A stretch of DNA of 64,000 nt from Octopus vulgaris. Its lineage: Eukaryota. The notes beneath the pieces were generated by a model, which did not search any database, was not told the DNA's origin, and was given only the letters and a program-made list of their open reading frames with translations. The translations under genes were made by a program, and so were the position numbers. Below are positions 26,056-26,249 of this stretch, one piece after another. The stretch is taken from the NCBI GenBank assembly GCA_951406725.2, contig OX597822.1, forward strand, positions 36,270,001-36,334,000, read 5' to 3'. Numbering within the stretch: the stretch's first letter is position 1; each line of letters opens with the position of its first letter.

Positions 26056-26249
26056 TCAGTTTTTCTTGGGCCGCCCTCTCTTTTGGTGGTGATTTTCAAT
26101 GCTTTTATGCTTCTGCAGTTGATACTGAGAGGCAAAGCATCGGCCACACTCTTCGCCTGAGCCCACGAGGAATTTGCAAATAAACAGAGAGGGTGAGTCT
26201 GCGTGTCTCGTGTGAAGGCTGCCACCATGCATCCACACCGTGTGTCTTC
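26056..26249 (-). CDS. Putative alternative terminal exon of d4/DPF encoding a C2H2 zinc finger plus AT-hook
   Basis: AG-free pyrimidine tract ending gacag at 26250; phase 1; G-RHTVWMHGGSLHTRHADSPSLFICKFLVGSGEECGRCFASQYQLQKHKSIENHHQKRGRPKKN*; GC-richer than the flanks; ATTAAA at 25898-25893. Confidence 0.7.

Follow-up and report, generated by a model that had tools for sequence, protein, structure and literature searches.

An alternative exon of the Octopus vulgaris d4/DPF gene encoding a C2H2 finger and an RGRPKK tail in a PHD-less gene model

In the d4/DPF (BAF45) protein DPF2, it is the Requiem domain that is resolved within the head module of BAF; acetylated H3 is read by the double PHD (PMC11544104). 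Products lacking PHD fingers have been described in nematodes, crustaceans, insects and vertebrates, with lineage-specific tails and repeated origins (PMC11678306). For example, DPF3a, which has no intact double PHD, stays in BAF, recruits BRG1 and reaches DNA through HEY1 (PMC4824069), retargeting the complex through its partners HEY1 and HRP2 (PMC11678306, PMC4824069). D4 proteins have themselves been reported to be without DNA-binding properties (PMC11678306). BAF already contains an AT-hook beside a reader domain, the hook of BRG1 strengthening DNA binding and remodelling (PMC11354804).

We have analysed the d4/DPF locus of Octopus vulgaris in a window of 64,000 nucleotides (the whole stretch of DNA under study, positions 36,270,001 to 36,334,000 of contig OX597822.1, assembly GCA_951406725.2), in which an exon preceding the first PHD exon encodes a C2H2 finger and the residues RGRPKK. 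It is this d4 tail that is new, the PHD-less isoform being already known as a class. A first-pass annotation of the window had proposed a domain-swap isoform with an architecture of which it knew no described case: a PHD-less gene model with finger and tail does exist, and we found no described d4 isoform with a tail of finger and AT-hook, but PHD-less d4 forms have been reported across animals. The main text of the family survey contains none of the terms 'AT-hook', 'Octopus' or 'cephalopod', and the consulted part of its supplement gives two Octopus genes by copy number, among which the accession of the isoform, CAI9727643.1, does not appear (PMC11678306). The literature searched, in which subscription journals are thinly covered, yielded no paper on this isoform or on such a d4 tail.

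The d4 gene and its annotated PHD-less product

Judged from its domains, the host gene is a member of the d4/DPF (BAF45) family, as the first-pass annotation had it: Requiem_N, a Krueppel-type finger and a double PHD are all found. The Requiem_N (PF14051) exon lies 7.8 kb beyond the window end and is the sole match in the whole genome. The full-length product (P0148) is matched by PF00628 in two stretches, corresponding to the double PHD, the central Krueppel-type C2H2 finger is also mapped, and by protein search the first PHD exon is identical to an Argonauta ubi-d4 protein. The exons considered here are the following.

58151..58270, minus strand: d4 exon whose donor serves the annotated isoform; encodes the latter half of the Krueppel-type C2H2 finger (protein mapping)
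36090..36137, minus strand: 48-nt d4 cassette exon that isoforms variably include; CAI9727643.1 is among those lacking it
25525..25650, minus strand: first PHD exon (PHD1), whose acceptor competes with that of the alternative exon; the DPF3a-like model CAI9727642.1 continues it to about 25403
23896..24008, minus strand: second exon of the double PHD (protein mapping)
18804..18885, minus strand: third exon of the double PHD (protein mapping)
17844..17911, minus strand: last coding exon of the full-length isoform (protein mapping)

The alternative exon had been taken to be hidden, a view that has to be abandoned, as the public record CAI9727643.1 (P0155; O. vulgaris, 314 aa) already uses it: residues 251-314 match window positions 26250-26059 at 100%. 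This gene model keeps the Requiem domain and leaves d4 before the PHD1 exon, resulting in the Pfam domain order Requiem_N (E 1.1e-27), Krueppel finger, new finger and RGRPKK, with the double PHD absent. Two junctions had been predicted, from exons that both end in G, as stated at the time; the one from 58151 to 26249 is present in CAI9727643.1, whereas the one from 36090 to 26249 is in no record examined. The spliced junction into 26249 is hence that of one gene model. The O. vulgaris reference annotation owes its alternative forms to PASA updates based on assembled Iso-Seq and RNA-seq data (PMC10700109), and we infer that CAI9727643.1 stems from that annotation; given this link, the 58151 to 26249 junction is likely to be transcript-based.

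The same gene has two other odd 3' forms listed, an extension and a far downstream exon, which indicates that the annotation records minor transcripts freely. In CAI9727642.1 (P0151, 332 aa) the PHD1 exon runs into the intron after the C2C2 half (window 25650-25403, minus strand), a Lepidoptera-like pattern; the consulted part of the survey reports no DPF3a-like PHD1 extension for molluscs (PMC11678306), and this one may be plain intron retention. In CAI9727639.1 (399 aa) the last seven residues are replaced by a tail from about 10 kb downstream (window 8016-7918, minus strand). The d4 introns also contain two broken frames, at 42444-42829 and 19023-19474 (both minus strand), which we take to be mariner/Tc1-type transposase-like pieces, and an inverted repeat at window 29036-29360, with 79-nt arms at 80% and adjoining 22-nt arms at 91%; this repeat resembles a short non-autonomous element, and within the pre-mRNA it could fold into double-stranded RNA.

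Comparison with other d4 proteins was carried out on a set of 188 proteins, 156 of them d4-like, consisting of 120 listed of 309 matches together with cluster members (for the octopus d4 cluster, 15 of 18 members are listed). Using a profile of the exon and its homologues, P0155 scores 118.9 bits, by construction, and the next best of the d4-like proteins among the matches listed reaches 2.3 bits; accordingly, none of the other 155 in this listed set carries the exon. It is absent from the other 18 of the 19 cephalopod d4 records listed (O. sinensis, O. bimaculoides, Argonauta, Sepia, Logan), it is likewise missing from the RefSeq models that the same cluster contains for two other Octopus species, and P0155 is the only one of the 19 listed cephalopod cluster members to lack PHD1. 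Since the set is made of listed matches and partly listed clusters, this absence concerns annotations and not genomes.

Splice site, 3' end and encoded module

The exon and the signals around it are placed as follows.

26250..26297, minus strand: 3' splice site, a 46-nt AG-free pyrimidine-rich stretch and AG at 26251-26250
26056..26249, minus strand: alternative exon, coding part, 63 codons and TGA, phase 1; C-terminus of CAI9727643.1
25993..26001, minus strand: donor-like AAG/GTGCGA, 57 nt after the stop, which would make the exon an internal stop-carrying cassette
25893..25898, minus strand: ATTAAA, candidate polyadenylation signal, at chance level

The acceptor, the phase 1 and the 63-codon frame agree with the original description, the AG-free gap spanning 46 nt (26297-26252), with the exon start at 26249 and the TGA at 26058-26056 on the minus strand. 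The GC-richer island in which the exon was said to lie is also evident, as the exon GC of 0.51 is reached by only 38 of 3231 sliding windows in upstream introns. Between 58150 and 25651 there are 103 pyrimidine-rich YAG sites, nine of which open a phase-1 frame of at least 40 aa; within this 32.5-kb stretch one of the nine has the C2H2 pattern and one has [RK]GRP, both being the 26249 exon. A second acceptor-like site is seen at window 26345-26400 (minus strand), with its AG at 26346-26345, a long U-rich tract and CTAAT just upstream, this AG being the upstream edge of the GC-richer island; as a coding entry it was rejected, for its phase-1 use would stop d4 after seven codons. In sequencing runs, at least half of the words of 25860-26260 are contained in 18 of 24 rows (six studies), a result neutral on expression as the kind of run was guessed, and no RNA run is among those listed as containing these words.

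Downstream of the stop, ATTAAA is present at 25898 as had been pointed out, but A[AT]TAAA occurs in 44% of 5000 shuffles and in 41 of 79 intron windows of the same length; at this chance level the hexamer was discarded as evidence of a last exon. A U-rich run follows about 35 nt after it. The donor-like site at 25999 agrees with five of seven consensus positions, compared to four to five for the real donors of the gene, and the PHD1 acceptor is found about 400 nt past the exon stop. For transcripts continuing to the PHD exons the stop would be premature, and the event therefore a poison splice.

Two elements are recognised in the encoded peptide.

26089..26184, minus strand: C2H2 finger F-x-C-x9-C-x3-F-x5-L-x2-H-x5-H, exon residues 22-53
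26062..26082, minus strand: AT-hook-like basic tail KRGRPKK

The finger pattern is as first reported, but KRGRPKK does not follow it at once: two residues (HQ) intervene, and the tail is followed by N and then the stop. The core C-x3-F-x5-L-x2-H-x3-5-H and a hairpin-helix fold are present in the predicted structure, AlphaFold on a three-row alignment giving pLDDT 78-85 over residues 21-50 and a helix at 41-51, with low confidence at both ends. Pfam zf-C2H2 matches the finger at E 0.0013, which is below its cut-off, and Foldseek with the exon model returns no row out of 125 at E≤0.001, the rows being mostly C2H2 fingers. The C-x9-C spacing, noted from the start as atypical, does lie outside the classical C-x2-4-C; rather than decay, it is a family trait, as the homologues P0006 and P0017 have x8 and x9. 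A C-x2-C finger formed through the inner CGRC was rejected, its second Cys being kept in neither homologue. As for the tail, RGRPKK coincides with the final six residues of TPKRPRGRPKK, the HMGA consensus in the cited excerpt (PMC11354804). It has the R-G-R-P core with basic flanks that defines an AT-hook and is missing the proline before RGR; no Pfam AT_hook match is reported on it. The model thus supports a predicted tail composed of a foldable C2H2 finger and an HMGA-type RGRPKK, which could also be a simple nuclear localisation signal.

A HMMER search of 1.84 billion representative proteins resulted in 25 matches at E≤0.001, of which 23 are in several stretches, mostly in multi-finger proteins. 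The remaining two are short single-stretch homologues, P0006 (49% identity, E 1.1e-7) and P0017 (44% identity, E 4.4e-5), and at these values the exon finger is not due to chance. Both are short unnamed singletons from ENA metagenome assemblies, and they have in common with the exon the ligands, the F and L positions, the long Cys spacing and Y-x-L-x-K-H-K. P0006, located on a 207,863-base contig, has the same GRPKKN end as the exon, and P0017 opens with F-x-S-x2-D-x2-R-H-x4-H, the back half of another finger, before the same finger. Word-seeded protein searches gave two candidates with the exon and 255 with the three-sequence alignment, none of them scored, and thus yielded no longer relative; both blanks are weak, as even CAI9727643.1, which is not a cluster representative, was missed. 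The exact exon peptide alone is absent from the protein collection. In the ESM Atlas the matches were small C2H2 clusters of a generic kind, spread over several domains and including some of large DNA viruses, with no usable family or sign of origin for the exon. DNA scans for the exon family confirmed none of two times 175 metagenome stretches and none of 259 and 56 viral stretches; in a further viral scan one of seven was confirmed and then dismissed, being a chance match of 15 residues that crosses a phage capsid gene.

Origin of the exon and competing explanations

By DNA search and by protein search (five candidates scored in the latter) the exon is single-copy in the genome, and searches with the two homologues return the exon locus only, together with one unrelated match at E 0.93; these counts are lower bounds. 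Seven other places with the finger pattern were set aside as ordinary fingers or chance. Mobile elements are the usual source of such pieces, and the first-pass annotation had remarked that the exon could have been exapted from a transposon, adding that many dispersed copies would expose an unspliced fragment. Only one match, a lower bound, was obtained, and the remark stands in part: exaptation fits the frameshifted finger half that lies under the acceptor (see below), whereas a transposon source found no dispersed copies, family or terminal repeats behind it. Genome searches gave no parent element or dispersed relatives of the exon, and no transposase core was found adjoining the fragment. 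There are 166 inverted pairs in 25600-36200; of the 25 longest, the ones on either side of the island consist of low-complexity A/T runs. A Zator/ISAzo13-type source was rejected, as none of the 11 loci from a PF07592 search scores with the exon profile; ten of these translate as what we take to be Tc1/mariner-like transposase pieces. Eight genome loci retrieved with a transposase motif likewise do not score with the profile, and the literature search on such a source gave nothing relevant.

Two further observations were made during these searches. One locus (L007:1306-2295; G000:C4:71248567-71252100) holds a Tc1-like transposase frame that is open over 329 aa, and broken copies closely related to it are present on several other contigs. 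Another (L026; G000:C29:23086697-23089729) is a long tandem C2H2 array with a 559-aa open frame, a similar array (L025, on C27) being interrupted by stops; both arrays are ordinary octopus zinc-finger expansion, unrelated to the exon.

A likely broken finger lies across the splice point itself.

26227..26293, minus strand: likely broken first finger (frames, shuffle test, comparison with P0017)

On the intron side, another frame (26281-26249) reads C-x3-F-x-S-x2-D-R, its Cys preceded at a distance of four codons by an in-frame stop (26293-26291); between this reading and the R-H-x4-H with which the exon begins lies a frameshift. When this broken finger was scored post hoc on a profile built from 198 finger cores, the break being represented by X, its score was reached by 135 (45 nt) and 92 (68 nt) of 20000 dinucleotide shuffles; for mononucleotide shuffles of the same two lengths the counts were 160 and 125 of 20000. 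A comparison with P0017 using BLOSUM62, also post hoc, was equalled by 108 of 20000. The resulting p of about 0.005-0.008 (post hoc) goes along with a score of −2.1, below the 6.7 that marks the 5th percentile of real fingers, and as the test is post hoc and the absolute score low, the result is suggestive only. It suggests that the exon may be the 3' end of a two-finger foreign gene whose first finger decayed into the acceptor, and since the acceptor overlaps this apparent frameshifted finger, exonisation from such a decayed gene is likely. Both lesions are at the splice point or on the intron side, none being in the 63 exon codons, and the four ligands, F, L and tail are all intact though no other genome copy was found.

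We tentatively favour, at somewhat less than an even chance, an exonised PHD-less d4 isoform from a decayed two-finger foreign source, acting as a minor BAF subunit with weak AT-biased DNA contact. The pyrimidine-rich codons of the broken first finger would then act as the acceptor, so that only the second finger and the tail would be translated, and a transcript end near 25870 would allow escape from nonsense-mediated decay. The 314-aa protein would enter BAF through its intact Requiem domain and compete with the full-length form; such a complex would lose d4-mediated reading of acetylated H3 and gain a minor-groove tether, which might tune residence or remodelling rather than select specific sites. 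By analogy with the PHD-less DPF3a, which stays in BAF, and with the Requiem domain intact, the 314-aa form is likely to be found in BAF without histone reading. Unless basic residues flank it, a single C2H2 finger seldom determines a site; for this reason, and because D4 proteins are reported as non-binding and no AT_hook is reported for the tail, weak AT-biased tethering is expected over sequence-specific targeting.

A neutral leak, in which a foreign-gene remnant offers a usable acceptor in a 32-kb intron and both RNA and protein are without importance, is rather unlikely. It agrees with the exon being known from one record in one species and missing from the RefSeq models of two other Octopus species, with the other minor 3' forms in the same annotation, and with the open frame having itself been the selection criterion for the finding; yet it leaves unexplained why lesions are confined to the intron side and the splice point while the 63 codons are clean, and the lack of sibling copies, within the limited sensitivity of the search, suggests an old insertion of which the exon part has outlasted its family. 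Poison splicing, by which the 26249 acceptor would be used, the transcript would carry on into the PHD exons, either spliced from the donor-like site at 25999 or reading through to the PHD1 exon, and the mRNA would be degraded so as to tune d4 dosage, we hold to be unlikely. The donor-like AAG/GTGCGA equals the real donors in score, the polyadenylation hexamer is at chance level, the PHD1 acceptor is so close beyond the stop, and a protein record is silent on the transcript 3' end. However, this mechanism does not require that 63 codons stay open, with the four ligands and the tail in place and 44-49% identity to distant homologues, and the U-rich run past ATTAAA is placed as at a real cleavage site.

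That octopods captured finger and AT-hook from a foreign gene as a regulated last exon of their single BAF45 gene, with splice choice switching BAF between acetylated-H3 reading and a grip on AT-rich DNA, strikes us as improbable. Still more doubtful is an old native d4 exon, conserved in molluscs or more widely, P0006 and P0017 being the last exons of other d4 loci: the exon is single-copy and inside d4, P0006 shares its GRPKKN end and sits on a long contig, and isoforms do hide inside clusters, P0155 having been missed by both the word-seeded and HMMER protein searches, but none of the 155 other d4-like proteins scores among the matches listed (2.3 bits at best against 118.9), the family survey, which covers eight molluscs, reports no such form in the part consulted (PMC11678306), and P0017 has F-x-S-x2-D-x2-R-H intact upstream of its finger, whereas in the window this lies on the intron side.

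Comparison with known d4 forms and AT-hook proteins

On the exonisation that we favour, the exon looks like a compact case of exon birth, in which the coding sequence of a decayed finger supplies the acceptor for the next finger. If conserved and regulated, it would provide a handle on the diversification of BAF targeting in cephalopods, whose single d4 gene compares with three in vertebrates, and, if the switch were true, a reader-to-DNA-binder swap in a core remodeller of the lineage with the largest invertebrate nervous system; as a leak or poison exon it would be an ordinary annotation detail.

The closest described forms are DPF3a (BAF45c1) and the DPF3a-like products of insects and crustaceans, which, like the octopus gene model, have the Requiem domain and the Krueppel finger and drop the double PHD through an alternative 3' end. 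These keep half of PHD1 (C2C2), whereas the octopus form branches before PHD1 and, having no half PHD1, is not DPF3a-like by that test (PMC11678306, PMC4824069). A nearer parallel in gene structure is XP_052124846.1 of Frankliniella occidentalis, also from a single-copy invertebrate d4, whose alternative last exon precedes every PHD exon, as the octopus exon does; compared by description, it keeps the Requiem (2/3) domain and C2H2, and the consulted text describes no extra finger or AT-hook for its tail (PMC11678306). Drosophila Toothrin (TTH), a member of the d4 family that is reported with the BAP complex, likewise has no PHD fingers (PMC11678306), but it is a separate paralogue without a zinc finger, whereas the octopus product is an isoform with two. 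P0006 and P0017 resemble the exon in the finger, with C-x8/9-C, C-x-F and Y-x-L-x-K-H-K, and as called are not fused to d4.

In respect to DNA contact, the AT-hooks of HMGA and BRG1/BRM have the same RGRPKK core in the excerpt cited (PMC11354804); the octopus tail differs from those of HMGA and BRG1 in having one hook, at the extreme C-terminus, with no proline before RGR, no Pfam AT_hook match and an adjoining C2H2 finger. DPF3a reaches DNA indirectly and its tail retargets BAF via protein partners; the octopus form ends in a second C2H2 finger and RGRPKK, and its replacement tail would itself be a nucleic-acid-binding module.
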